A stretch of 64,000 bases of DNA, from positions 1 to 64,000 of IMG/VR virus record IMGVR_UViG_3300047160_005525. One strand, written 5' to 3'. The translations under genes were made by a program, and so were the position numbers. This DNA is from a virus (taxonomy: Duplodnaviria > Caudoviricetes). The notes under the pieces were generated by a model, which saw nothing but the letters and a program-made list of their open reading frames with translations, was not told the DNA's origin and made no database searches. This document shows positions 11,325-61,930 of the stretch, piece after piece (positions within the stretch are counted from its first letter, which is position 1; each line of letters begins with the position of its first letter).

Positions 11325-12773
11325 ATGGCAGCACGCGCGCTTTTGGCTCGTGGTTTGCGAACGGTCGCCCGTGCGATTGAAGGACAGTATCGACCAGGAC
11401 CCTATAATCTTCCGATAACCGGCGGCTGGTTGCCCGATGGGGCGCCGATCAATTGGTGGCAAACGGGCATGATCCCGGTCACTGGTTATCGTAATGCCAT
11501 GGTCGAAGCATGCGTTTCCGCATATTCGCAAACAACTGCAATGCTCCCCGGCGATCACTGGAGAACGAACACTAAGGGCGGGCGCGAGCGGGTCAAGAAC
11601 AGTGCGTTGTCACGCATACTGCGCCATCCGAATGCATACCAGAGCATCTCCGATTTCATGCTCAACGCGACACGGCAACTTTATTTGGACGGCAATGCTT
11701 ATGCACTCGCGCTGCGCAACGATAGGTTCGAGGTTACTGAACTTCATCTGATGGACAGCCGGGTTTCCCGCCCGGAGCTTGCTGTCGACGGTTCGGTTTT
11801 TTACCAACTCGCTGGCAACATGGTGATCCAGCAGCAGGTCGGAGACAGTGCTCGGTTGATGGTGCCACAGCGTGACGTGCTGCATATTCGATTGCATGCA
11901 GATCGGCGCTGGCCTTATCCGATCTTCGGCGAGTCACCGTTGCTCGCGGCGTTGGGCGACATCGAGACAGGCTCGGCGATCACCGATCAGCAAATCCAAT
12001 TCTATCGCAATCAGGCGCGACCGAGCGCGGTGCTGTCGACCGACTTGCAACTCGACAAAGATCAAGTGCAGTTTCTACGTGACCGCTGGGACGAGCAGGC
12101 GCGCGGGCTTAATCAAGGTAAGACGCCGATCTTGACTGCGGGCTTGAAGGTGCAGCCATGGACGGTGGGCGGGCGCGACGCGCAGATCGCGGAGATGCTG
12201 AAGATCAGCGAATCGCACATTGCGCTGGTGTATCGCATTCCATTGCCTTTGCTTGGATTGACAAGCGGATCAGCCGGCGGCACGGAAGCACTCATACAAT
12301 TATGGCTGGCCTCAGGGCTCGGTTTTTGTCTCAATCATATCGAGGAATCTTTTGGCTTACTCTTTCAGCTTAAAGGTCAGCCCGATGAGTATTGCGAGTT
12401 TGATACGTCTGCCCTTTTACGCTCGCTGTTCAAAGATAGGATTGAAGGCTTAACCCGCGCAGTACAAGGCGGTGTTTATAGTCCTAATGAAGCCAGGGCG
12501 GAAGAAGGTTTAGAGAAAACACCCTATGGCGACGAGCCGCGTGTTCAGCAACAGGTCGTGCCACTTTCTGCCGCCGCAGGAATCCCGCACGCGCCGGGGC
12601 CGCACGCACCGCCGAGCGCGGCTGGACAACCGGCACCAGGTGCTCCGCAGCCAAAGCCGCCGACAGCGGAAACGCCAACAGCGGTAAAGGATCATCGCGA
12701 TGACATACGACGAGAAGCACAACGGCTCCACGCCGTCGTCAGTCGGATCGGAAGAAACCGATCTGTTAACTGA
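11325..12773 (+). CDS. HK97-family portal protein
   Basis: LRHPNAYQSISDF, LYLDGNAYA, VLHIRL, FYRNQARPSAVL, GVYSPNEARAEEGL. Confidence 0.93.
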   Translation: MAARALLARGLRTVARAIEGQYRPGPYNLPITGGWLPDGAPINWWQTGMIPVTGYRNAMVEACVSAYSQTTAMLPGDHWRTNTKGGRERVKNSALSRILRHPNAYQSISDFMLNATRQLYLDGNAYALALRNDRFEVTELHLMDSRVSRPELAVDGSVFYQLAGNMVIQQQVGDSARLMVPQRDVLHIRLHADRRWPYPIFGESPLLAALGDIETGSAITDQQIQFYRNQARPSAVLSTDLQLDKDQVQFLRDRWDEQARGLNQGKTPILTAGLKVQPWTVGGRDAQIAEMLKISESHIALVYRIPLPLLGLTSGSAGGTEALIQLWLASGLGFCLNHIEESFGLLFQLKGQPDEYCEFDTSALLRSLFKDRIEGLTRAVQGGVYSPNEARAEEGLEKTPYGDEPRVQQQVVPLSAAAGIPHAPGPHAPPSAAGQPAPGAPQPKPPTAETPTAVKDHRDDIRREAQRLHAVVSRIGRNRSVN

Positions 12774-14445
12774 AGTTACGCGCGAGGTTCTTGGCGAAGT
12801 CATTGTACAAGAGCGCGAGAAAGCGCAGCGCGACTGGCAACGCGACCGCGAATTGATAACAGCGCAAGCTGAGGAGGCAATTGCCCGTGCTGAATCCAAA
12901 GCGGAAACGGCAATCGCTCGTGCTGATGCTAGAGCAGAAACAGCCATCGCTCGCGCTGATGCCGTAGCGGAGGCGACCGCGCGTGAGGCTGCCGAGATGC
13001 GCGCGCAGATGAGCGAGATGCGCTCGGAGATCGAGCGGATGATGTCGATCCGCTTGGCCGAGCTTCGTGATGGAGCGGTCGGGCCGAAAGGAGAAAAGGG
13101 CGATCAGGGTCTGATGGGGCCGCAGGGGGAACGCGGTGTCGCTGTCATGGGCGAAACGGGGCCGCCAGGACTGAAGGGCGAGCCTGGAATCGCTGGCCGC
13201 GACGGCCGCGACGGCGCTCCGGGGCCAGCAGGGCCGCAGGGCGAACGCGGAAGCGATGGCATCAGCATTAAAGGTCCGATTGGTCCCGAGGGTCCTCCAG
13301 GGCGCGACGGTGCTCAAGGCCCTCCTGGAGAGAGCATCGTAGGTCCGCAAGGTGAGCGGGGATTACCAGGTGAAGCGATTGTTGGGCCGCAGGGTGAACC
13401 GGGTTTGAAGGGTGATAAGGGCGACGTAGGCGAGCGCGGTTTGCCTGGAGAAGCGATTGTAGGGCCGCAAGGTGAGCAAGGCGTTGCTGGCGTACAGGGT
13501 GAACGCGGTGAAGCAGGAGAGAAAGGCGATGTCGGCGAGCGAGGTATCCAAGGCGAAGCCGGGCCGTCCGGCTCGGCCGGTCCAAAGGGCGATCCAGGAG
13601 AGCGCGGCGAGCAAGGCCCGCAAGGTGAGGTCGGACCCATTGGTGCCAAAGGCGACGTCGGAGAAAAAGGCAATGCCGGTGATCCCGGTGTGCCAGGAAT
13701 ACGAGGAGAAAAAGGAGAAAGAGGCGAGCGAGGACTGGACGGAGCAATTGGCTCTCAGGGTGTGCCTGGAAGCGTGGGAGAACGCGGAGAAAAAGGGATT
13801 GACGGCGCCCGCGGCGAAAGGGGCGAGCGCGGCGAGCAGGGAGCGCGCGGCGAGAAAGGCGATCAGGGCATTCCTGGTGGAGTTGGACCTGCTGGTCAAC
13901 GAGGTGAACGCGGCGAGCGCGGCGAGCAAGGTTCGCCTGGTAAATTGACGATCTGCAAAGTCTGGCAGAAGGACGAGATCGTCTACGAATCTCAATTGCG
14001 CACGCACGAAGGTTCGTTATGGCAGGCGCTGAAAGATACAGCGCAGCTTCCCGGTCACGCTGATTGGATTTGTCTCGCCACGGCTGGCATCGATGGCGCT
14101 GGCATCAACCCGTGCGGGCTCTATCAGGAAAATCATGTGTACCGTCGTCTCGACTTGGTCACTGTCAACGGGTCAACCTTCGTTGCTAAGCGCGATGCTC
14201 CTGGCATATGCCCCGGCGAGCATTGGCAGCTTACTGCTAGCCAAGGCAAACGTGGTATTGCCGGCGAAAAGGGCGAGCGTGGTCCGATTGGGCCAAAGGG
14301 TGAAGCCGGTCAAGCCGCTCCGCGCATTACAGGCTTCCGTCTTGATCCGAAAAATTATCGTGCCGTTGCACGAATGTCTGATGGCTCAGAACTGCCGCTA
14401 GAACTGCGCGAACTATTCGAGCAGTTCAATGATGAGACTCGATGA
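12700..14445 (+). CDS. collagen-like head-associated protein
   Basis: N-terminal coiled coil, long Gly-X-Y tract, C-terminal W-rich modules (VWQKDEIVY...GSLWQALKDT). Confidence 0.85.
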   Translation: MTYDEKHNGSTPSSVGSEETDLLTEVTREVLGEVIVQEREKAQRDWQRDRELITAQAEEAIARAESKAETAIARADARAETAIARADAVAEATAREAAEMRAQMSEMRSEIERMMSIRLAELRDGAVGPKGEKGDQGLMGPQGERGVAVMGETGPPGLKGEPGIAGRDGRDGAPGPAGPQGERGSDGISIKGPIGPEGPPGRDGAQGPPGESIVGPQGERGLPGEAIVGPQGEPGLKGDKGDVGERGLPGEAIVGPQGEQGVAGVQGERGEAGEKGDVGERGIQGEAGPSGSAGPKGDPGERGEQGPQGEVGPIGAKGDVGEKGNAGDPGVPGIRGEKGERGERGLDGAIGSQGVPGSVGERGEKGIDGARGERGERGEQGARGEKGDQGIPGGVGPAGQRGERGERGEQGSPGKLTICKVWQKDEIVYESQLRTHEGSLWQALKDTAQLPGHADWICLATAGIDGAGINPCGLYQENHVYRRLDLVTVNGSTFVAKRDAPGICPGEHWQLTASQGKRGIAGEKGERGPIGPKGEAGQAAPRITGFRLDPKNYRAVARMSDGSELPLELRELFEQFNDETR

Positions 14446-14447
14446 AA

Positions 14448-14571
14448 GAGGGCCGACTCTTCGGATGAAAAGTCAGCCCTCACCTCGCCATGCCTTGCCT
14501 AGCCTCGCCGTGCCTCGCCCTGCCTGGCCAAGCCTGGCCTCGCCAAGACCATGTTAGTCTAGCATTTTCAC
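14448..14571 (-). ncRNA. GGY/NN pentamer-array cassette B (13 units)
   Basis: Hairpin 14448-14481; RCC-NN units 14482-14546; GTGAAA-N4-TAGACT on - strand at 14556-14571; NN code matches 14416-14445. Confidence 0.8.
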
Positions 14572-17037: not shown

Positions 17038-17790
17038 CTAGATGGAGTCTCGCATGATCTGGCGCTTGCGGTCATATCGCAGTTTTGCGTTGATACGATC
17101 GCAAGCGTGGCAACGTTTCCCTGGTTCTTTTGGATGGCCTCTCACGCAAACGCTGCAAGATCGAATAGCGCGTAAATGGGCTTTGGTTTTTTCAGAATGA
17201 TGTCTTCCAAAGAAGCCATTGCGTTCGCCGTTCTGATCTTTGCCCAGTCGTGGATTGGTAATTCTCATTGGCTTGCCAAATGCATGGTGTTGCTCGCCGT
17301 GAGGCGTATTTGCGATTTGGCGAGCGCGTTGTTCCGCCGTCATTGGACCGGCGGCTTTGGTGCCAGCGCTGATTGTTGCTCTTTCTGCTTCTGTGCGCTG
17401 AGTGCCTTTAGGGACTGGATTTACGATGCCGCCACGTTCGATGATTTTGGCGCGAATCTTGTTCTTCTCTTTTTCTGACATATGCGTGCCAAATCGAAAG
17501 TTATGTACGCCATGTCGCTTTAATGAATGCGAACCACCGGCGAGAACATTCCAACCGATGAATTTGTGAGGTCGTAAAGCTTCTTCTAGAAACTCACATT
17601 CTTCAACTGATCCTTGGAAGAGAATGAGGCTTCGAAACTTTTTCGGCACTCTTCGATAAATGCCAGTCGCGTATTGATGTTGAGAAAATCGTTTTGGTGG
17701 TCGTTGAGCAGTGAATCCGATGTAGCCGTCTGTACGCGGATCAACACAAGTCTCGTCGTATAGCCAATAGACACTCGTCGTCTTATCCAT
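17038..17790 (-). mobile_element. free-standing GIY-YIG homing endonuclease with NUMOD3-like repeats
   Basis: VYWLY...GYIGFT..PPKRFSQH, GWNVLAGG, FFGRHHSEKTKAHL; antisense to the late operon. Confidence 0.8.
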
Positions 17791-17937
17791 GGAAGACCTC
17801 CTAGAAGGTTTTTCGTGGCTAGAGCCGGGGCGACGAGGGCAAACGCCGTCTCGGCTCGCTGTAACTCTAGCGTAACTGGTGATTTCACCCAAGAGCCCAG
17901 TCTGAAATCTGGCCTCACAACCTATGGAGTAACTACC

Positions 17938-20031
17938 ATGCCTATCTCTTTCGCAAACATTCCATCTAATATTAAGGTCCCTTTATATTGGGTGGAAGTG
18001 GATAACGCGAATCAAGCGTAGGTCCCTTTGTCGAGCAATCGACATCGAACATCGGGTGAACTCGGGGAAACTCCAGATCGGACAATCCCGAGCCAAGCTG
18101 CCGCAACGGCAGAAGGTGTAACGACTAGAGCGCAAGCTCGTAGGATCAAGCGATCCGAAGCGCCCGACGCCCCAAGTGGGCGGTGATATAGTCTCCTCCA
18201 CATAGGAATATGTGGCAGTCCGCAAAAGGACGGTAGCGAGAGTAGCGAACTCGCTGCGAAGATTAGGCCCTCAATGGCAGGTTTGCCGACGCTCAATCTG
18301 CGAGCGTTGCTGATCGGCACGATGAATGCTGACGGCACTGGCACTCAAGACATCCCGGTTGCCATAGGCACGCAAGCATCAGCCGACGAGAAGTTCGGCG
18401 TAGGCTCTGAACTCGCGCAGATGTTCAAAGCCTACTTTAAAAATAATTTTGCCAATGAGGTGTGGGCGGGGCCCGTGGCTCCGTCTACTAACTCGCAAGC
18501 AGCAAGTGGCACGATCACGGTGACGACGCCGCCGAGCGAGGCCGGAACGATCAATCTCTACATCGCCGGTCATCATGTGGCGGTCAACGTCGGCATGAGT
18601 GATACGGCTGAGCAGGTTGCGCTTGAAATCGCTAACGCGATTAATGCAATCGAACCCGCTTTGCCGGTGACAGCGGCAGCAGGGACCGGAGCGACAACTA
18701 CGGGAACTGGCACCGGCAATTCGACGGGCACGACCAGTCTGACCGTCTCGTCGTCAACCGGTACCATCGCGATCGGCGCGACCGTGACTGGCACCGGCGT
18801 TCCTGCCAACACGACGATTGCGAGTCAGACCTCGGGCACGATCGGCGGCGATGGCGTGTACGTCACCAGTAACCCGACGACGCTGTCGGCGGCAGCGATC
18901 ACGACCACGCTGACCAGCAATACGAACGTGGTCACGGTGACTTGCACCTTCCTGGGCGTCAACGGCAACGAGATTCGCATCGAGCAGGACTACTACGGAA
19001 TGCTCGGCGGCGAACGGCCGGTGACGGGGCTGGTGCTGACGTTGCCGGCGACAAACTTCTTGACCGGCGGTGTCGGCACGCCGGACTTTACCAACTTGAT
19101 CATAGCCATGGGCGAGACGCCGTTTGAGTATCTCTGCGTGCCTTACTGGGATTCCAACACCTTGCTCGCGTTTGAGGAGGAGATGGGATTCGGAGATTCG
19201 GGTCGCTGGGGATGGCAGCGTCAGCTGTTCGGCCATGTGTTCCTTGCCAAGCGCGGTCAATACTCGGACCTCGTCACCTGGGGCTTGACCCGCAACAGCG
19301 GATTGATCTCGGTGCTGGCGTTCGAGAATCCCACGCCGACGCCGATGTACGAGATGGCGGCGGCTTACACGGCGAAGGCGCAGCGCGCGCTCAGCAACGA
19401 CCCGGCCAGGCCGCTGCAGACCTTGCAACTCAACGGCACGCTGCCGGCGAAGCTGCACGATCGCTTCAACTTCGTCGAACTCAACTCCCTCGCCTCAAGC
19501 GGCCTTGCCATCCAGAAGTGTTGGGAAGGCTCGGGCATGTCGCAAATCGCCCGCGAGCAAACAACCTACCAACTTAATCTTTATGGCCAGGGCGATGACG
19601 CGTACGAACTCGTCACGACGCTCGCGACGTTGGCGAAGATTCTCCGCAATCAACGTCACGCGATCACGAGCAAGTATCCCAGACACAAACTTGCGAATGA
19701 CGGAACACGCTTCGGGCCAGGGCAGGCGATTGTGACCCCGGCTATTATCAAAGCCGAATTAGTCGCACAATACCGGATGGATATGTGGGACGGCCTCGTC
19801 GAGGACGTCGCCGACTTCAAGCGCTTCCTCCTGGTGGAAAGGGACCCGGATAACCCTAATAGGTTAAACGTGCTTTATCCGCCTGACTTGATAAATCAGC
19901 TGCGAATCTTCGCCGTGCTCGCACAATTTAGACTCCAGTACGATCGTGGGATCGATGTTGCCATTATCGGCTATACGGGACTCGCAGGAATCGCTGGACC
20001 TGGTGGTGCCTTAACTGGTACTGGTGGCTAA
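17938..20031 (+). CDS. contractile tail sheath (Mu gpL-like), interrupted by a group I intron at 18004-18267
   Basis: Exon 1 MPISFANIPSNIKVPLYWVEVD + exon 2 PSMAGLPTL...; sheath motifs YTAKAQRALSNDPARPLQTL, VERDPDNPNRLNVLYPPDLINQLRIFA. Confidence 0.92.
18004..18267 (+). mobile_element. ORF-less group I intron (264 nt)
   Basis: U at 5' splice site pairs with IGS GGUCC; P3 TCGGGTG/CGCCCGA; P4 CTCGGG/CCCGAG; P7 GACTA/TAGTC; P9 CCACATA-GGAA-TATGTGG; terminal G; in-frame TAG removed by splicing. Confidence 0.9.
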
Positions 20032-32421: not shown

Positions 32422-33770
32422 CCAATGGAGTAACTGCAAATCCTGGCGCTGCTCGTCAGACCGGCACCTCGACCGAGTCTATCTCGGGAGATTATTGGAA
32501 GGTGCAAGCACCGCTGATTGTCCGGCCGCGCACGGTGATGCATCGGCAAGTCTTTCCAGCGGCCCCGACTGAAGAAGTCGCGACGCTCGTTGTCAACGGC
32601 ATGATCTATCAAGACTGGGAGACCGTGTGGGTCCAGTGGGATTTGCAACAGCCATGGGCGCAATTCAAATTCACGGCGACTGAAGATTATCCGCCGACTA
32701 TTCAGTTTGGGCCGGGTGATAAGTGTCAGGTTTATCTCGGCGGATATCCGGTCATCAGCGGGACTGTTCTGATCCGACAAGTTGCCTATGACAAGAATAA
32801 TAAAGGCATCACCATCCAAGGCGTGAGCACGAGTTGGTACACCGCGCGCGCGAGTGTTGTCGATGCGACACAAGAATATAAGGGCGACTTCTTAACCATC
32901 GCGGCAAAGGTTCTGGCACCGACCTGCTCAGGCTGGCATCCGATGGGCAACATCTCGGGATTGCCGTTCCCGACGCCGGTCCAAGCCAATTCAGGCGAGA
33001 CCATCTTTCAATTCTTGGAGACGCTCGGGCGCATGCGCAACGTCTTTGTCGTGAGTGATCCTTACGGCGACTTTGTCTTCATTGGTGACCACGTAGGCCA
33101 GGTGATCGCCAGCCTGACCGAAGGCGAAAACATTCTCAAGATGCAGTGTCTCATTGAAGATTTGCAGCCTTACTCGGAATACATTATTCGCGGTCAGAGC
33201 CCCGCTAATGATGAGCACAACATGGGCGCTGCCGCGCATATGGAAGCATATCGCACAGGCACCGCGAAATGCTATTCGCCAGACTTGGTTGCTGCGGAAT
33301 TTCCGGCGTGGACGGTTCCTGAATTGCAGCTTCGTGCCAATCATGAATATGATTGGAAACAGCGGATAGTCGAAGCGCACATCACGGTGCAGGGTTGGTT
33401 CAACCCGATCACCGGTCAGCGCTGGGACCCTGCTCAAACAGTTTGGGTCTATTCGCCGATGGCCATGTTGAACATGACGATGGTCATCGAAGCAGTGACG
33501 TTTACGCAAGACTCGAGCAGTGGGTCGCTGACCGAGTTGAAGTGCGTCGCGCCATGGAACTGGAACGATAACAACTGGCAGATCGGTCCAGGCAATCATC
33601 CTCTCATCCAGCCTCCACCAACTCAAGGCGCTATCGCGATTCCAGAAGATAAGCCCGCTCAATCGCCGCCGGTTCAATTGCCGGACTCGGTCGAGCCAAA
33701 GCCGTGGCAATCGTCGGCACAGGCGGTGAGCGAGGCGGCGGGCGCAGGCGGCATTAGTTTTCCGGAGTAG
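32418..33770 (+). CDS. baseplate hub (Mu gp44/gpP-like)
   Basis: ATLVVNG..YQDWETVWV, GETIFQFLETL, ITVQGWF; ATG at 32418 overlaps the upstream stop. Confidence 0.85.
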   Translation: MTNGVTANPGAARQTGTSTESISGDYWKVQAPLIVRPRTVMHRQVFPAAPTEEVATLVVNGMIYQDWETVWVQWDLQQPWAQFKFTATEDYPPTIQFGPGDKCQVYLGGYPVISGTVLIRQVAYDKNNKGITIQGVSTSWYTARASVVDATQEYKGDFLTIAAKVLAPTCSGWHPMGNISGLPFPTPVQANSGETIFQFLETLGRMRNVFVVSDPYGDFVFIGDHVGQVIASLTEGENILKMQCLIEDLQPYSEYIIRGQSPANDEHNMGAAAHMEAYRTGTAKCYSPDLVAAEFPAWTVPELQLRANHEYDWKQRIVEAHITVQGWFNPITGQRWDPAQTVWVYSPMAMLNMTMVIEAVTFTQDSSSGSLTELKCVAPWNWNDNNWQIGPGNHPLIQPPPTQGAIAIPEDKPAQSPPVQLPDSVEPKPWQSSAQAVSEAAGAGGISFPE

Positions 33771-47798: not shown

Positions 47799-47911
47799 GA
47801 AACGGCCGCCCATTTTGTGACGACCGTTTCTCCCCTGCCATGCCTTACCGGGCCATGCCGCGCCCCGCCAGACCGGACCTTGCCACGCCCAACCGGGCCA
47901 TGCCGCGCCCT
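47797..47911 (-). ncRNA. GGY/NN pentamer-array cassette C (15 units)
   Basis: Hairpin 47797-47832; units 47837-47911; NN code matches the endolysin at 47136-47174. Confidence 0.82.
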
Positions 47912-48726: not shown

Positions 48727-48833
48727 GAGAGCGAGAGCTTTCGCTCCCGCTCTCCCCTACCTTGCCTCGCCGGGCCGTACCATACCATTCCTTGCCCGAC
48801 CACACCCCGCCGCGCCCCACCAGACCTCGCCGC
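48727..48833 (-). ncRNA. GGY/NN pentamer-array cassette D (15 units)
   Basis: Hairpin 48727-48754; units 48759-48833 (one TCC variant); NN code matches 48602-48640. Confidence 0.82.
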
Positions 48834-49392: not shown

Positions 49393-49500
49393 GAGAGCGA
49401 GAGCTTTTGGCCCTCGCTCTCCCTTGCCTCGCCGCGCCGCGCCAAGCCTTGCCGTGCCTGGCCTAGCCACGCCCTACCCCGCCTAGCCGCGCCCCGCCAC
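49393..49500 (-). ncRNA. GGY/NN pentamer-array cassette E (15 units)
   Basis: Hairpin 49393-49421, nearly identical to that of D; units 49426-49500; NN code matches 49600-49635. Confidence 0.8.
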
Positions 49501-56835: not shown

Positions 56836-57117
56836 GACGCTTCATGCAAGTGCATGACGCTATTTCCTGGCCAGGCCATCGGCAGGCCATCGCCTCGGCA
56901 GATTTTGCAAGAAACCCGCATGGAATGGGCAGAAGTCGAAAAGATCACCCTCCCCACAAGGGGGAGGGGCGATCATATGGCATGATATGGGATGATACTT
57001 GGTTGTCAACTAAGTACTTGACTTTCCGAGGCGAAAGTCCACATCTATCAATGACGCTTCATGGAGCTTCATGGCTCGCCTGGCCATGGACAGGCCACCA
57101 GAGAGAAGGATCGGAAG

Positions 57118-58389
57118 ATGACCAGCTTCAAGCCCAAGGATCTGCAGACGCCCGGAGGGCGCCGCGGATTACTCCCTCGCCCCAAATGCTACTTCGTCTC
57201 GCTGTGCCCCGGTGTCTCGCTTGGTTACCGTCGCCTCGCGGATGTAGCCGGCGCGCCGCGCGCGGGCGCCTGGACGCTGCGCAAGGCTGACGGCAAGGGT
57301 GGCGGCTGCCCCAAGGGTTTCGCCGTCGCCGACGACGTCGTGCAGGCCAACGGCAACGAGATCCTGACCTACAAGCAGGCCGTCGCCAAGGCGCTGGCTT
57401 TCGCCGGCGGCACCACTGCCCAGGATGATCCCCCGATCACCGTCGCTATGGCCATCCTCGACTACACCAAGTCGCTGATCGAACGCGGCCGCCGTCCCTA
57501 CAACGCGACCCGCCTTTGGCGCCTCGACAAGGACGGCAATCCAATTCCCGGTCTGGTTCCGGCCTGGCTAGCTGATCGCCAAGTCGGCGCCCTAACGATC
57601 AAGGAGCTTGAGCGGTGGCGCGAGAGTCTCGGCTACAAGCACAAGGGCACCCTCAATCGCACCATCAAGCCGCTCAAGAAGGCGCTGAACCGCGCTGCCG
57701 CGCGCGATCACCGTATCACCAACACGCATGTGTGGAGCGGTGCGGAAAGCGGCTTGCCGCTCATTCCCAAGGCTGACGGCGTGCGCCGCGTCTTTCTTGA
57801 GCCGGCTCAGGTGAATGCGCTGATCGATGCTGCATACGCGTATGAGGCCGATCGCGGCTTTGGCTTGTTCGTGGAAACTGGCGCCGAAACTGGCGCGCGC
57901 CCGAGCCAGCTATGGAAACTCAAGGTCTCCAGCCTCAACGGCAACCGCGTGATGATGCCGCCGTCCAAGAAGGGGCCAGATGGCAAGGATCTGCCTCCAG
58001 TCGCGGTCCCCATCACTCCGGTCCTGGCCGCCAAGCTTCGCGAGGCGGCGGGGCGCCGCAGCCCCAGCGAGCCGCTCCTGCTTCGCGATGAGCGCTTCGA
58101 GCAGCGTGAATGGGTGAGCGACAACGGCGCTTGGATAGATCCCTTCAACGCAATCGTCGCCAAAGTCCGCGAGCAGATGGAGTTGCCCGCGGACGTCACC
58201 TACTACGCGCTTCGCCACTCCACCGCGAAGCGACAGATCCGGGCTGGCATTGATCTGGTCACCATCGCCCAGCGCCTGGAGACCAGCGTGGCCACGTTGC
58301 AGAAGCACTACGCTGCCGCCATCAGCGAAATCGCCGGCGATGACACGGTCGGGCTACTCGAACGCCCCGCGCTCCGCGTAGTCGCATGA
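57118..58389 (+). CDS. int: tyrosine integrase
   Basis: N-terminal arm-binding segment (SLGYRR..GAWTLR); ETGARPSQL, YALRHS, TSVATLQKHY catalytic motifs. Confidence 0.92.
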   Translation: MTSFKPKDLQTPGGRRGLLPRPKCYFVSLCPGVSLGYRRLADVAGAPRAGAWTLRKADGKGGGCPKGFAVADDVVQANGNEILTYKQAVAKALAFAGGTTAQDDPPITVAMAILDYTKSLIERGRRPYNATRLWRLDKDGNPIPGLVPAWLADRQVGALTIKELERWRESLGYKHKGTLNRTIKPLKKALNRAAARDHRITNTHVWSGAESGLPLIPKADGVRRVFLEPAQVNALIDAAYAYEADRGFGLFVETGAETGARPSQLWKLKVSSLNGNRVMMPPSKKGPDGKDLPPVAVPITPVLAAKLREAAGRRSPSEPLLLRDERFEQREWVSDNGAWIDPFNAIVAKVREQMELPADVTYYALRHSTAKRQIRAGIDLVTIAQRLETSVATLQKHYAAAISEIAGDDTVGLLERPALRVVA

Positions 58390-58525
58390 CTCCACTGCGG
58401 AGCACGGTGCATAACCATGATGAATGCAGTTGAATGTGACATCACTCTGCGTCACTCTGATGGATGTTCCGAATCGACGACGAGACCGGTTCGGGATGTC
58501 TCTTCATTGTTCAACGGAGTTTCCC

Positions 58526-58732
58526 ATGCCGGGACGCAAGCATGGGCCGCGGACGGCTACGCCGTCAGCTGCTTATACGATTCAAGAATTCTGCGACGCT
58601 TACAGGATCTCGACAGGCTTCTACTACAAGCTTCGGGACAGCGGTCGCGGGCCAAAAGAGATGCGCCTCGGCAAGCGGATCTTGATTTCGGTCGAGGCCG
58701 CCCAAGCTTGGCGACGGGCGCAGGAGCGTTGA
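58526..58732 (+). CDS. excisionase/AlpA-like HTH protein
   Basis: YTIQEFCDAYRISTGFYYKLRDSGRGP..RLGKRILIS. Confidence 0.8.
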   Translation: MPGRKHGPRTATPSAAYTIQEFCDAYRISTGFYYKLRDSGRGPKEMRLGKRILISVEAAQAWRRAQER

Positions 58733-58759: not shown

Positions 58760-58954
58760 TCAAACTCGATCTTCCGGGCTTCGCCTATAGCGGCCAACGC
58801 CGTACTTCGGAACGCGCAGCCCTTCCTCGGTCAGGATTTGGGCTACTCGCTGGGGCGAGACCCCGAGCTTTCTGGCGATGTCTGAGGCCGTCAATTTGGT
58901 GTCGGCATTGATCAGATCGATGATTTTCTGCCTTGTCGTAAGTTGCTGTTTCAT
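58760..58954 (-). CDS. winged-HTH regulator
   Basis: LTASDIARKLGVSPQRVAQIL. Confidence 0.8.
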   Translation of the reverse strand: MKQQLTTRQKIIDLINADTKLTASDIARKLGVSPQRVAQILTEEGLRVPKYGVGRYRRSPEDRV

Positions 58955-58979
58955 AATGGAATTATCCTCTTTTGACCCC

Positions 58980-59008
58980 CTTGAAAGTTTCAAGATCTAG
59001 CCTATATA
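58980..59008 (+). promoter_or_regulatory. sigma70-type promoter with overlapping palindromic operator
   Basis: CTTGAA-N17-CTATAT (rhizobial consensus CTTGAC-N17-CTATAT); perfect inverted repeat CTTGAAA-GT-TTTCAAG. Confidence 0.7.
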
Positions 59009-59014
59009 TAGGGT

Positions 59015-59870
59015 GCAGGGAGAGATGGCGAAAGCCCCCTCCCCTCCTTTCGGCCCCGCCAGCGGCAAGAGGTCCAGGTGCTGGCACGGTAGAGCCCGGC
59101 TCCCTTGGGACGAAGCGGAACACCGCCGCCCTCGCTGAGACACCCCGGTAACGGCCGTCGATCTCCCAGAAAGATCATGCGTGAACGCGCTGGCTGGGTG
59201 ACCGCTGAAGGCGAGAGCCTCGGCAAGGATAACAGAGAGAAACGCCCCGGAGCGAATGCCGGGGCTTTCTTCATTGGCGACCAGCAGTAATCAAACATCT
59301 CGCCCTAACCGGCGAGCTTGGGCGGATTAAAGCGCACCACGGCCGTGGACGACCGCCACCGCTGGTCACCAATGAAGAGCTTTACTGAAAGCCTGAAGCA
59401 ACCGGAGAAAACGAAAGGCCCGGCGGGTTCCAACTCCGCCCAAGAGGTCGCGTGAACGGTGATTGCCCGAGGCTTTCGGACGTGCTCAGAGCGCCCCTCT
59501 GAGAGCCGTTGGCGCGGGAATTCAAAGGCCCGCTCGCGAACGGCACAGAAAACCGCAAATGCACTGGCCGCGATGACCAAATGGATATCCCATCGCGCGC
59601 GGAACACGCCAGTCGAGAGCAAAGTCGCTCCCCCGGTAGCATCGCGCCGGACACCCCGAGACGATGACGTGAGCGGGACACGTAAGAGCCCGTCGGTTCT
59701 ATCGCCCGAGGCTAATCGGGTCCGATGACAGGTTAGCAGGTAGCGTGACAGGTCCCGACCTCCGAGAGTGGGCGGGACATTCCCAAGCAGCGGCGAGCGT
59801 CATTGCCCTTGGCACGGCCAGCGATGGCCGATGGCGTGCTCCGCTGTGAGACACCGCTGCTTCGGAATCG
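59015..59870 (+). ncRNA. candidate large structured non-coding RNA/leader (~850 nt)
   Basis: No convincing ORF; dense nested hairpins, GNRA loops and long-range helices. Confidence 0.55.
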
Positions 59871-59884
59871 AAAGGAGAACTTCA

Positions 59885-60055
59885 ATGACTCAACGCAAGA
59901 AGCAGCATCCATTGCTGGCTCGCGCTCGCGCTTACTATCGGTTGGCGTGGCGGCGCGGCGTCAGCGCTCAACAAGCCGAAACGTATCAGCGGATCGCTGA
60001 TCAATTGGTACGCGAGGCTCGACGTCAACGTGAACGGCAAGCTCACATGAAGTGA
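59885..60055 (+). CDS. small basic hypothetical protein
   Basis: AAGGAG RBS. Confidence 0.6.
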   Translation: MTQRKKQHPLLARARAYYRLAWRRGVSAQQAETYQRIADQLVREARRQRERQAHMK

Positions 60056-60139
60056 TTGCAGATCATGCCGCAGTAAGCGCTTCGTCCCCCAACAGCGCCT
60101 CTGCCGCGGCATGCACGGCAATCAAGCCGATGGAAGGAA

Positions 60140-60511
60140 ATGACAATGGACCTCTTGAATCATGCTCGCACCCCGGCCGAGTTTGCAAAGCTGTGGGAAA
60201 CTGCGAAGACCGCCGGCCAGGCGGCTGCCGAAGAGCAGGACCGCAAGCTCGGCAATGAGAATTGCCGCGGTCTCGACTGCGGCTTTGCTTGGGTGACGAT
60301 GCCCGGAAATATCCCGTTTGCTCGATGGGCAAAGAAGATGGGCATTGCCAGCAAGTCGTATCCGAGTGGCTTGTCTATTTGGTACAGCAAGCTGCACAGC
60401 TTGCCCACGCAATCGGTCAGCGTTCACGAAGCTGCCGCGCGCGCTGCACGCGACGTGCTCGCGCACGGTTTGCAATCCTCGCTGATCGGCATGGGCTCGC
60501 GGCTCGACTGA
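60140..60511 (+). CDS. hypothetical early protein
   Basis: GAAGGA RBS; CGFAWV motif. Confidence 0.7.
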   Translation: MTMDLLNHARTPAEFAKLWETAKTAGQAAAEEQDRKLGNENCRGLDCGFAWVTMPGNIPFARWAKKMGIASKSYPSGLSIWYSKLHSLPTQSVSVHEAAARAARDVLAHGLQSSLIGMGSRLD

Positions 60512-60514
60512 ATA

Positions 60515-60903
60515 AAGCGCCGCCTACGGGCGGCGTCATTGTTCAGCACGAAGGAGAAAGCAATGATCAGTTTGATTGTGAAAGGTAACCGCTACGAAGC
60601 CGGCTATGCAGCCGCGCAGCATGGCGTCCCGTTCGCGTTCCGGCGTGAAGTAGTGCGAGCAGGTAGCAAGACTGGCGAGACAGTCGGTCTTACTGCCTCC
60701 GAGAATCGCGACAACGTCGTCAAATGGTTTGGCGATGGCTCGCGCATTGCGCCGTTTCCTGTCGGTACGTTGTTGCTGTTTACCGAGTTGTGAACGGAGC
60801 GCTCCGCCTCGCCCTCGGCGGAGATCGCGAGACTACGGGCACGTAAGCACTAAGCGCCCTCTTCGGAGGGCGTCATAGTGTTTATGAAAGGAGAAAGCAA
60901 TGA
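60515..60903 (+). repeat. two copies of hairpin+RBS intergenic module (60515-60566, 60852-60903)
   Basis: AAGCGCC..loop..GGCGTCATWGT..AAGGAGAAAGCAATGA. Confidence 0.75.
60563..60793 (+). CDS. hypothetical protein
   Basis: AAGGAG RBS. Confidence 0.65.
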   Translation: MISLIVKGNRYEAGYAAAQHGVPFAFRREVVRAGSKTGETVGLTASENRDNVVKWFGDGSRIAPFPVGTLLLFTEL

Positions 60904-61305: not shown

Positions 61306-61866
61306 ATGACAACCCGATATCTCAGTTGCGCCGAGACTGCCAAGCTGATCCGCGTGGCACTCAAGAAGGCGTTCCCTGGCGTCAAGTTCTCCGTGCGATC
61401 GAGCACCTATTCCATGGGCGCCTCGATCCGCGTCGGCTGGACCGATGGCCCGACCACTAAGGCGGTCGACGCTGTCGTCCAGGTCTACAGCGGCGCCGGC
61501 TTCGACGGCATGATCGACCTGAAGTATCACAAGTCGGCATGGCTGATGCCGGATGGCAGCGCGACGTTTGCGAAAACGTCCGGGACCGCCGGCTCGATGG
61601 GCACTGTCGAAAGTGCTCAAGAGATGCAGCCTTCGTCGAAGGCCGAGCAAGTCCACTTCGGCGCCGATTACGTGTTCACCGAGCGGCGTCATTCATTGCC
61701 AGTCTACACCGCGGCAGTGAAGCAACTCTGCGACGACTACGGCCAGCCAATGCCAGAAATCGTCAACGGCCACTGCGGCCCGTACATCAAAACCAACGAC
61801 TGGCGCTTTGCCGACACCGGCCAAGACCTGTCGACGCTTGTTCACCGCGCGTTGCAAGACGCGTGA
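61306..61866 (+). CDS. LPD29-like domain protein
   Basis: AKLIRVALKKAFPGVKFSVRSSTYSMGASIRVGWTDGPT..GFDGMID, recalled as large polyvalent protein-associated domain 29. Confidence 0.7.
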   Translation: MTTRYLSCAETAKLIRVALKKAFPGVKFSVRSSTYSMGASIRVGWTDGPTTKAVDAVVQVYSGAGFDGMIDLKYHKSAWLMPDGSATFAKTSGTAGSMGTVESAQEMQPSSKAEQVHFGADYVFTERRHSLPVYTAAVKQLCDDYGQPMPEIVNGHCGPYIKTNDWRFADTGQDLSTLVHRALQDA

Positions 61867-61930
61867 ATACCGCAGAGCCCGTCATGTTGGCGGGCTCGAC
61901 GGTGTTCATTCGAACATCACCAAGTAAGAG

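Follow-up and report, generated by a model that had tools for sequence, protein, structure and literature searches.

In the lysis-lysogeny switch of temperate phages, the gene immediately 3' of the rightward promoter is normally cro-like. The lambda pL leader of gene N contains nutL and an RNase III-sensitive hairpin that controls translation of N, and known boxB sites carry pentaloops. The lambda 6S transcript is a short terminated RNA from a phage promoter. GOLLD and ROOL are widespread families, commonly found near tRNA genes, and the giant phage-associated ncRNAs described so far are thought to be released and to act in trans.

In the phage described here, the usual position of the cro-like gene is occupied by ~870 nt of well-folding RNA. 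The DNA analysed (the window, 64,000 nt) comprises positions 1 to 64,000 of an IMG/VR virus record of 76.8 kb, which has been rated as complete. A preliminary description had singled out positions 59015-59870 as an ORF-poor, ornately structured RNA downstream of a strong promoter, and had likened it to the GOLLD/ROOL class or, failing that, to an antitermination leader of the early operon. This proposal is partly confirmed: the stretch is truly gene-poor, biased to the plus strand and unusually well-folding, its assignment to a giant-ncRNA family is rejected, and a leader is favoured though unproven.

Genome context and coding content of the gap

The source is a contractile-tailed phage. Among its genes are those for the portal (11325-12773) and the tail sheath (18274-20031), together with a prohead protease fusion and Mu gpP-like baseplate genes. 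Its portal protein is at most ~32% identical to those of cultured phages and has ~170 uncultivated relatives with identities of up to 76% (59-76% for the best 80); the phage is an uncultivated soil myovirus, and a singleton. Directly 3' of the portal gene, a 581-aa protein (12700-14445, plus strand) contains long collagen triple-helix repeats (Pfam Collagen, E = 1e-45). A group I intron at 17958-18215 on the plus strand (Rfam RF00028, 65 bits, model matched full-length) lies just 5' of the sheath ORF, and since a short ORF at 17815-18021 matches the sheath regions of kin phages with 70-92% identity, the intron seems to interrupt the sheath gene; beside the intron region, an ORF of 284 aa runs on the minus strand (17038-17892). 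The record also contains runs of GGYNN pentamers (5 to 15 units) of the type described for VIPR vrRNAs in 2026 preprints. All are on the minus strand, as one array at the right end of the record and six orphan sites (record positions 75996-76776 and 71360-71439; window positions 49424-49498, 48757-48831, 47835-47909, 14480-14544 and 2617-2676). There are no GGY/NN units inside the leader region, and naive decoding of the units of this phage gave only chance-level matches to it.

The stretch is located in the lysogeny module, the relevant features of which are as follows.

57061-58389, plus strand: tyrosine integrase (Pfam/PHROG searches of ORFs)
58424-58732, plus strand: HTH_17 excisionase-like gene (Pfam/PHROG searches of ORFs)
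58760-58954, minus strand: 64-aa winged-HTH regulator (Pfam HTH_24 and PF0610-like_N)
58980-59012, plus strand: promoter-like TTGAAA (58981-86), N16 and TATATA (59003-08), read from the sequence
59177-59290, plus strand: orphan 37-aa ORF of the public annotation, overlapping a terminator-like hairpin; its sole match is itself
59804-59884, plus strand: open frame continuous with ORF 59885, with a weak likeness to the protein P0110 and a non-coding-like codon score of -0.31 bits/codon
59885-60055, plus strand: first early ORF, 56 aa, Arg-rich, with the motif ARAYYRLAWRR and four relatives among 1.84 billion representatives

The gap spans 58955-59884, between the start of the leftward HTH gene and the ATG at 59885, where a rightward series of small early genes begins. 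The HTH gene, which has GAGGA upstream of its ATG at 58954, is divergent from the leader, and its 64-aa winged-HTH product is likely the switch protein. As described previously, the first ORF bearing a ribosome binding site is the one at 59885, with AAAGGAG at a spacing of 7 nt to the ATG (8 nt downstream of the GGAG core). The promoter, which had been called strong and consensus, is only plausible: its hexamers match at 5/6 and 4/6 positions, and it was not picked up by the sigma-70 scan. It is embedded in two perfect palindromes, CTTGAAAGTTTCAAG (58980-94) and CCTATATATAGG (59001-12), which look like candidate operators for the neighbouring HTH regulator; the palindrome at 58980-58994 has no second copy within the window.

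Several other features were observed. The segment 56800-57000, just 5' of the integrase gene, has z = -3.6 on the plus strand and -2.8 on the minus strand as a 200-nt window and could be an attP site or a regulatory element. On the other side of the gap, the 123-aa early protein (60140-60511, plus strand) belongs to a large uncharacterised family (105 clusters; DCGFAW and TQSxSxH motifs invariant), whose members are found beside unrelated genes in phage contexts of 42-61% G+C and behave in a moron-like manner. Three G+C-rich stable hairpins lie between early genes on the plus strand (60509-60545, 60850-60876 and 61866-61910). UACG and UUCG loops cap two of them, and two of the three begin at the TGA stop of the upstream gene; they have no U-tract and are therefore not intrinsic terminators.

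The earlier claim that the stretch is poor in ORFs holds. None of its ORFs has a family or a homolog, and the public caller placed only the one orphan ORF of 37 aa there. GC3 periodicity, the mark of real genes in this genome, is flat across most of the stretch, and codon-usage log-odds trained on 18 long genes are negative or near zero for most ORFs of the region. More positive scores were obtained for three short plus-strand ORFs, 59105-59290, the nested 59177-59290 (+0.34 bits/codon, which places it at the upper end of the null distribution) and 59318-59455, all of which are in the frame of ORF 59885; this frame contains 6 stops per 296 codons, compared with 11 in each other plus-strand frame. 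Plus-strand frame 2 (59093-60052) was translated through its stops and submitted to a full HMMER search against the 1.84 billion representatives, which returned only its own 56-aa and 37-aa ORFs and the four relatives of the 56-aa ORF. A minus-strand read-through spanning the 98-aa and 105-aa ORFs had no relative in a word-indexed protein search, and neither Pfam and PHROG searches of the region's ORFs nor six-frame tblastn gave any match. These negatives indicate that the stretch contains no conserved coding signal, the finding in its overlapping ORFs that the preliminary description had named as one that would speak against it. The product of the 56-aa ORF has no Pfam or PHROG match either, and the protein atlas gave nothing usable for it. 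The neighbouring proteins of the leader are all singletons in a collection of ~15 billion proteins, in which the 56-aa, 37-aa and 64-aa proteins are each found on one contig. One relative of the 56-aa protein, P0110, has an N-terminal CxxC..CxxC zinc ribbon that is weakly aligned by BLASTP to the 27 codons 5' of ATG 59885, and for this reason the 3'-terminal ~80 nt of the leader may be left over from a coding sequence.

Predicted fold of the stretch

Compared with shuffled sequences, the fold of the whole region has z ~ -4 on both strands. Among 200-nt windows of the stretch only 59200-59400 stands out, since the partition function attributes the bulk of the stability to long-range helices. 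On the plus strand the stretch is predicted to form three long-range-closed domains enclosed by a 10-bp helix (P1), and the elements discussed below are the following.

59018-59043, plus strand: 5'-terminal hairpin with a GAAA cap; pair probability 0.93, -14.8 kcal/mol
59044-59053, plus strand: anti-Shine-Dalgarno strand CUCCUUUCGG, CCUCC-type, of closing helix P1
59100-59448, plus strand: Domain I, closed by 59104-59127 / 59422-59444; pair probability 1.00, z = -6.07 on the plus and -5.78 on the minus strand
59244-59275, plus strand: intrinsic-terminator-like hairpin (stem-loop 59244-59265) from the terminator scan; -16.2 kcal/mol
59268-59378, plus strand: long hairpin found as an inverted repeat, with a 21-bp stem (59268-59288 / 59358-59378) and a three-way junction on top; -53.9 kcal/mol
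59317-59326, plus strand: 5' arm of a perfect 10-bp pair with 59435-59444, from the inverted-repeat search; duplex -20.7 kcal/mol
59446-59578, plus strand: Domain II, closed by 59446-59461 / 59562-59578; probability 0.96, z = -2.97 on the plus and -0.98 on the minus strand
59594-59848, plus strand: Domain III, a long irregular stem 59594-59630 / 59795-59848; probability 0.86-0.98, z = -2.89 on the plus and -0.99 on the minus strand
59868-59877, plus strand: Shine-Dalgarno strand UCGAAAGGAG of closing helix P1 (ribosome binding site of ORF 59885)

The background for these z-scores came from a genome-wide set of 60 windows, each 350 nt long (mean -0.62, sd 1.22, minimum -4.07), and the minimum is the window that holds the Rfam-confirmed group I intron. 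Domain I, to which the GUAA, GAGA, terminator-like and long hairpins all belong, lies beyond all 60 background windows and is thus more extreme than a known ribozyme of the same genome. Domains II and III, the latter including the GCGA hairpin at 59815-59830, are ~2 sd from background. Domain I folds equally well on the minus strand, where three positions are G.U that are C.A or A.C on the plus strand, and for Domains II and III only the plus strand is more stable than its shuffles. The high GNRA density noted previously was borne out, with four GNRA-capped hairpins on the plus strand, where 0.74 are expected (P ~ 0.007), and a minus strand that has none, and the plus-strand count ties for the highest in the genome among windows of equal size. 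The strand-specific z-scores of Domains II and III and this GNRA bias favour a plus-strand RNA. The G+C content of the leader region exceeds the genome average.

The terminator-like hairpin was overlooked in the preliminary description. It comprises 7 bp, all G-C, and an 8-nt loop followed by the U-tract UUUCUUCAUU, so that a G+C-rich hairpin with a U-tract, as expected of an attenuator, is present between the promoter and the first gene, ~250 nt downstream of the former. In the terminator scan 59244-59265 is the only terminator-like site on the plus strand between the promoter and ORF 59885. Since its 5' flank is A-rich and its 3' flank U-rich, the hairpin is bidirectional, and a second minus-strand terminator-like site is found at 59316-59299. 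The U-tract doubles as the 5' arm of the 21-bp stem, which contains one C.A on the plus strand (G.U on the minus strand) and is flanked by GCTT on both sides. The 3' arm of this stem, 59363-59378, is also an exact 16-nt complement to 33076-33091 in a gpP-like baseplate gene, for which ~0.01-0.03 occurrences are expected in this genome and which may be due to chance.

Every helix listed in the preliminary description was found at or near its reported position, and its long-range pair 59317-59326 / 59435-59444 is indeed perfect over 10 bp. The picture of one ornately structured RNA stands insofar as the plus strand folds better than chance, and has to be qualified insofar as the local signal is confined to a single 200-nt window and several of the listed helices compete, so that all of them cannot form simultaneously. 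The 10-bp pair competes with the closing stem of Domain I and would thus belong to an alternative fold or a pseudoknot; AGCAGCGG/CCGCTGCT clashes with the Domain III stem, as does the hairpin 59779-93/59854-68. The 3' half of the terminator-like hairpin likewise has an energetically feasible alternative partner (59023-59039 / 59259-59276, -21.6 kcal/mol), at a size where pairs are common by chance. In the modelled structures such competing helices are consistent with switching, but pairings of that length can also be fortuitous.

Closing helix P1 consists of 10 bp (59044-59053 / 59868-59877) with a pair probability of 0.98 and a duplex energy of -16.2 kcal/mol. Its anti-Shine-Dalgarno strand sits just 3' of the GAAA-capped 5' hairpin, and its two strands, separated by 815 nt, bracket the three domains. 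A 9-bp Watson-Crick complement to the Shine-Dalgarno region was seen in 1.6% of shuffled upstream sequences. A masking helix acting over a range of 830 nt is kinetically demanding.

Known families and the search for relatives

At gathering score, the Rfam scan of the whole window found no family match to the leader region, and a scan of 58800-60200 at E <= 10 with permissive filters gave two chance matches only (mir-532 and L31 leader). The Infernal scan that had been proposed as a check therefore provides no family, and membership in the GOLLD/ROOL class of giant ncRNAs fails with it, as no covariance-model match was obtained. On the same grounds we rejected group II introns (ORF-less forms included; Domain V/VI and D1-D4 models), the C4 / P4 CI antisense RNAs (no Rfam C4 match at E <= 10) and known riboswitch or T-box leaders, for which there is no Rfam aptamer match despite the terminator-like hairpin. 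A boxA consensus allowing up to 3 mismatches has no match on the plus strand in 59010-59885, which speaks against a lambda-type nut antitermination leader, where boxA lies upstream of the boxB hairpin. As to the other components of such a leader, four predicted plus-strand hairpins have GNRA tetraloops and might or might not correspond to boxB, and the 56-aa ORF is Arg-rich but matches no family.

Homologs for an analysis of covariation, the second check proposed, were sought in phages, plasmids, IMG/VR kin and metagenome loci, and no relative was found. Blastn of the region against phage and plasmid collections gave no match; 40 loci obtained via the downstream 123-aa gene share nothing with the region by blastn or nhmmer; no useful loci were obtained via the integrase, the HTH gene or the 56-aa ORF, used singly and as an alignment; and a scan of genome contigs gave one match, in an unrelated MAG. 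The DNA search of the 19 longest of the 80 portal-kin records found only a 24-nt hairpin-level match (E = 0.004), and synteny with the portal kin is limited to structural genes. A covariance model of 59238-59386 searched against 48 records had its best match, with E 0.145, inside a portal gene. The inverted-repeat element (59268-59378) has 0 other copies in IMG/VR, its own genome and the phage or plasmid collections. The kin phage G002, the closest one with a related integrase and excisionase, leads straight into small genes with no gap.

Proposed leader mechanism, rival explanations and known systems

Our preferred reading, held tentatively and at somewhat less than even odds, is that the stretch is a long structured cis-acting 5' leader of the rightward early operon, with an attenuator and sequestration of the Shine-Dalgarno sequence. 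It is favoured because there is a plausible promoter at its 5' side, a terminator-like hairpin inside it, no other plus-strand terminator before the ORF and a predicted helix covering the Shine-Dalgarno sequence. The lack of coding support, the fold excess, the plus-strand bias of Domains II and III, the GNRA hairpins and the feasible alternative partner of the terminator's 3' half also speak for it. Transcription would start near 59015, from a promoter overlapping the two palindromes beside the divergent HTH regulator. The RNA would first make the GAAA-capped 5' hairpin and ~250 nt further on meet the terminator-like hairpin at 59244-59275, where by default many transcripts would stop as a ~255-nt RNA. 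RNA reading through, presumably under control, would adopt the three domains, and 59044-59053 would then pair with the Shine-Dalgarno sequence at 59868-59877, so that ORF 59885 would remain untranslated until the leader is remodelled or cleaved. The 21-bp stem in 59268-59378 is a plausible site for processing by a double-strand-specific nuclease. The points that count against a leader are that it has no homolog, that the promoter is below the criteria of the sigma-70 scan, that Domain I is equally good on the minus strand, that the long-range masking helix is kinetically demanding, that G002 has no gap and that the plus strand has no boxA-like element.

The same features can be read in other ways. 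The gap may be mostly non-functional DNA made of decayed early genes, to which a short inverted repeat with GCTT on either side (59268-59378) was perhaps added by insertion, and its G+C-rich sequence would then fold well by accident. The low number of stops in the frame of ORF 59885, the coding-like scores of two short ORFs in that frame, the weak alignment of the 27 preceding codons to the zinc ribbon of a homolog, the kin phages without a gap and the singleton status of the phage all point in this direction. We nevertheless consider it unlikely, as the frame-2 read-through has no protein homolog upstream of ~59800 and neither does the main minus-strand frame, no further copy of the inverted repeat was found in the collections searched, and a strand-specific fold excess with a GNRA bias is unexpected for decayed coding DNA. 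The presence on both strands of terminator-like signals, including the second minus-strand site, and the minus-strand stability of Domain I, with G.U where the plus strand has mismatches, would also suit a composite locus, in which a ~255-nt RNA ending at 59244-59275, comparable to short terminated phage RNAs such as lambda 6S, and maybe a minus-strand antisense RNA with its end at the same terminator are combined with a separate early promoter and a shorter leader. Such an arrangement is quite unlikely given that the sigma-70 scan finds no promoter-like site on either strand in 59280-59885, that the minus strand has no GNRA hairpins and that long-range helices spanning the terminator are predicted at a probability of ~1.0.

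A large structured ncRNA of ~830-860 nt that stands alone, acts in trans and is processed out of the early transcript would account for the multi-domain architecture with its 5'-3' closing helix, the GNRA enrichment on the plus strand, a fold z-score beyond that of the group I intron window and a G+C content above the genome average. Before the ORF there is no 3' terminator and instead an internal terminator-like site; the RNA has no Rfam family and no relatives in any collection searched, whereas large ncRNA classes are normally widespread; and Domains II and III are only ~2 sd off background. We regard this new class as improbable to a similar degree as the composite locus, and its more specific form, a new ~850-nt three-domain trans-acting RNA class so far present in one soil myovirus with VIPR-type guide arrays, as somewhat more doubtful. 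Least probable, and by our estimate very much so, is a nut leader of the lambda N type, in which boxB-like GNRA hairpins would be bound by the Arg-rich 56-aa protein to drive read-through of the internal terminator and of those downstream. The order of promoter, GNRA hairpins, long stem and small Arg-rich first gene agrees with it, as does the internal terminator-like site, but the plus strand lacks a boxA-like sequence, the 56-aa protein matches no family, its conserved motif is to our knowledge not among the recognised arginine-rich RNA-binding motifs, and tetraloops are found here in place of the pentaloops of known boxB. Of the two readings offered in the preliminary description, an antitermination or regulatory leader fits the anatomy better than a giant ncRNA.

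If the stretch is a true leader, attenuation together with very long-range masking of the ribosome binding site would constitute an unusually elaborate RNA layer on the lysis-lysogeny switch, and if it truly is a free RNA, the large ncRNAs would gain a new class; the value of the finding is limited because this is a singleton with no host assigned.

Returning to the leader reading, the stretch can be compared with four kinds of known RNA. It shares with GOLLD and ROOL the size class, a multi-domain fold, GNRA-capped hairpins and a phage location, and differs from them in matching no covariance model and in being a singleton at the position of an operon leader. Like the P4 CI and P1/P7 C4 RNAs, it would be an untranslated early-operon leader in which repeated short segments are complementary to one internal segment, as 59435-59444 can pair with 59317-59326 or 59102-59110; unlike them, it has no Rfam C4 match and an adjacent gene for a protein regulator, and processing of the C4 type is only hypothetical here. 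With leaders of the rpoS type it has in common a length of several hundred nucleotides and an upstream pyrimidine-rich strand predicted to pair with the ribosome binding site, whereas its pairing strands are 815 nt apart around three domains and it has no known partner small RNA. The lambda N leader is similar in that an early-promoter leader with small GNRA-type hairpins and a long double-stranded stem precedes a small basic first gene, and, at the level of functions predicted here, in translational control via leader structure and in terminators to be read through; the leader of this phage is ~4 times longer and has no boxA, no N homolog, tetraloops and an internal terminator-like hairpin before the first gene. 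On these analogies the best-supported reading of its functional class is that the stretch, although a member of no described family, would work like the lambda N leader or like long 5' UTRs that mask the Shine-Dalgarno sequence.
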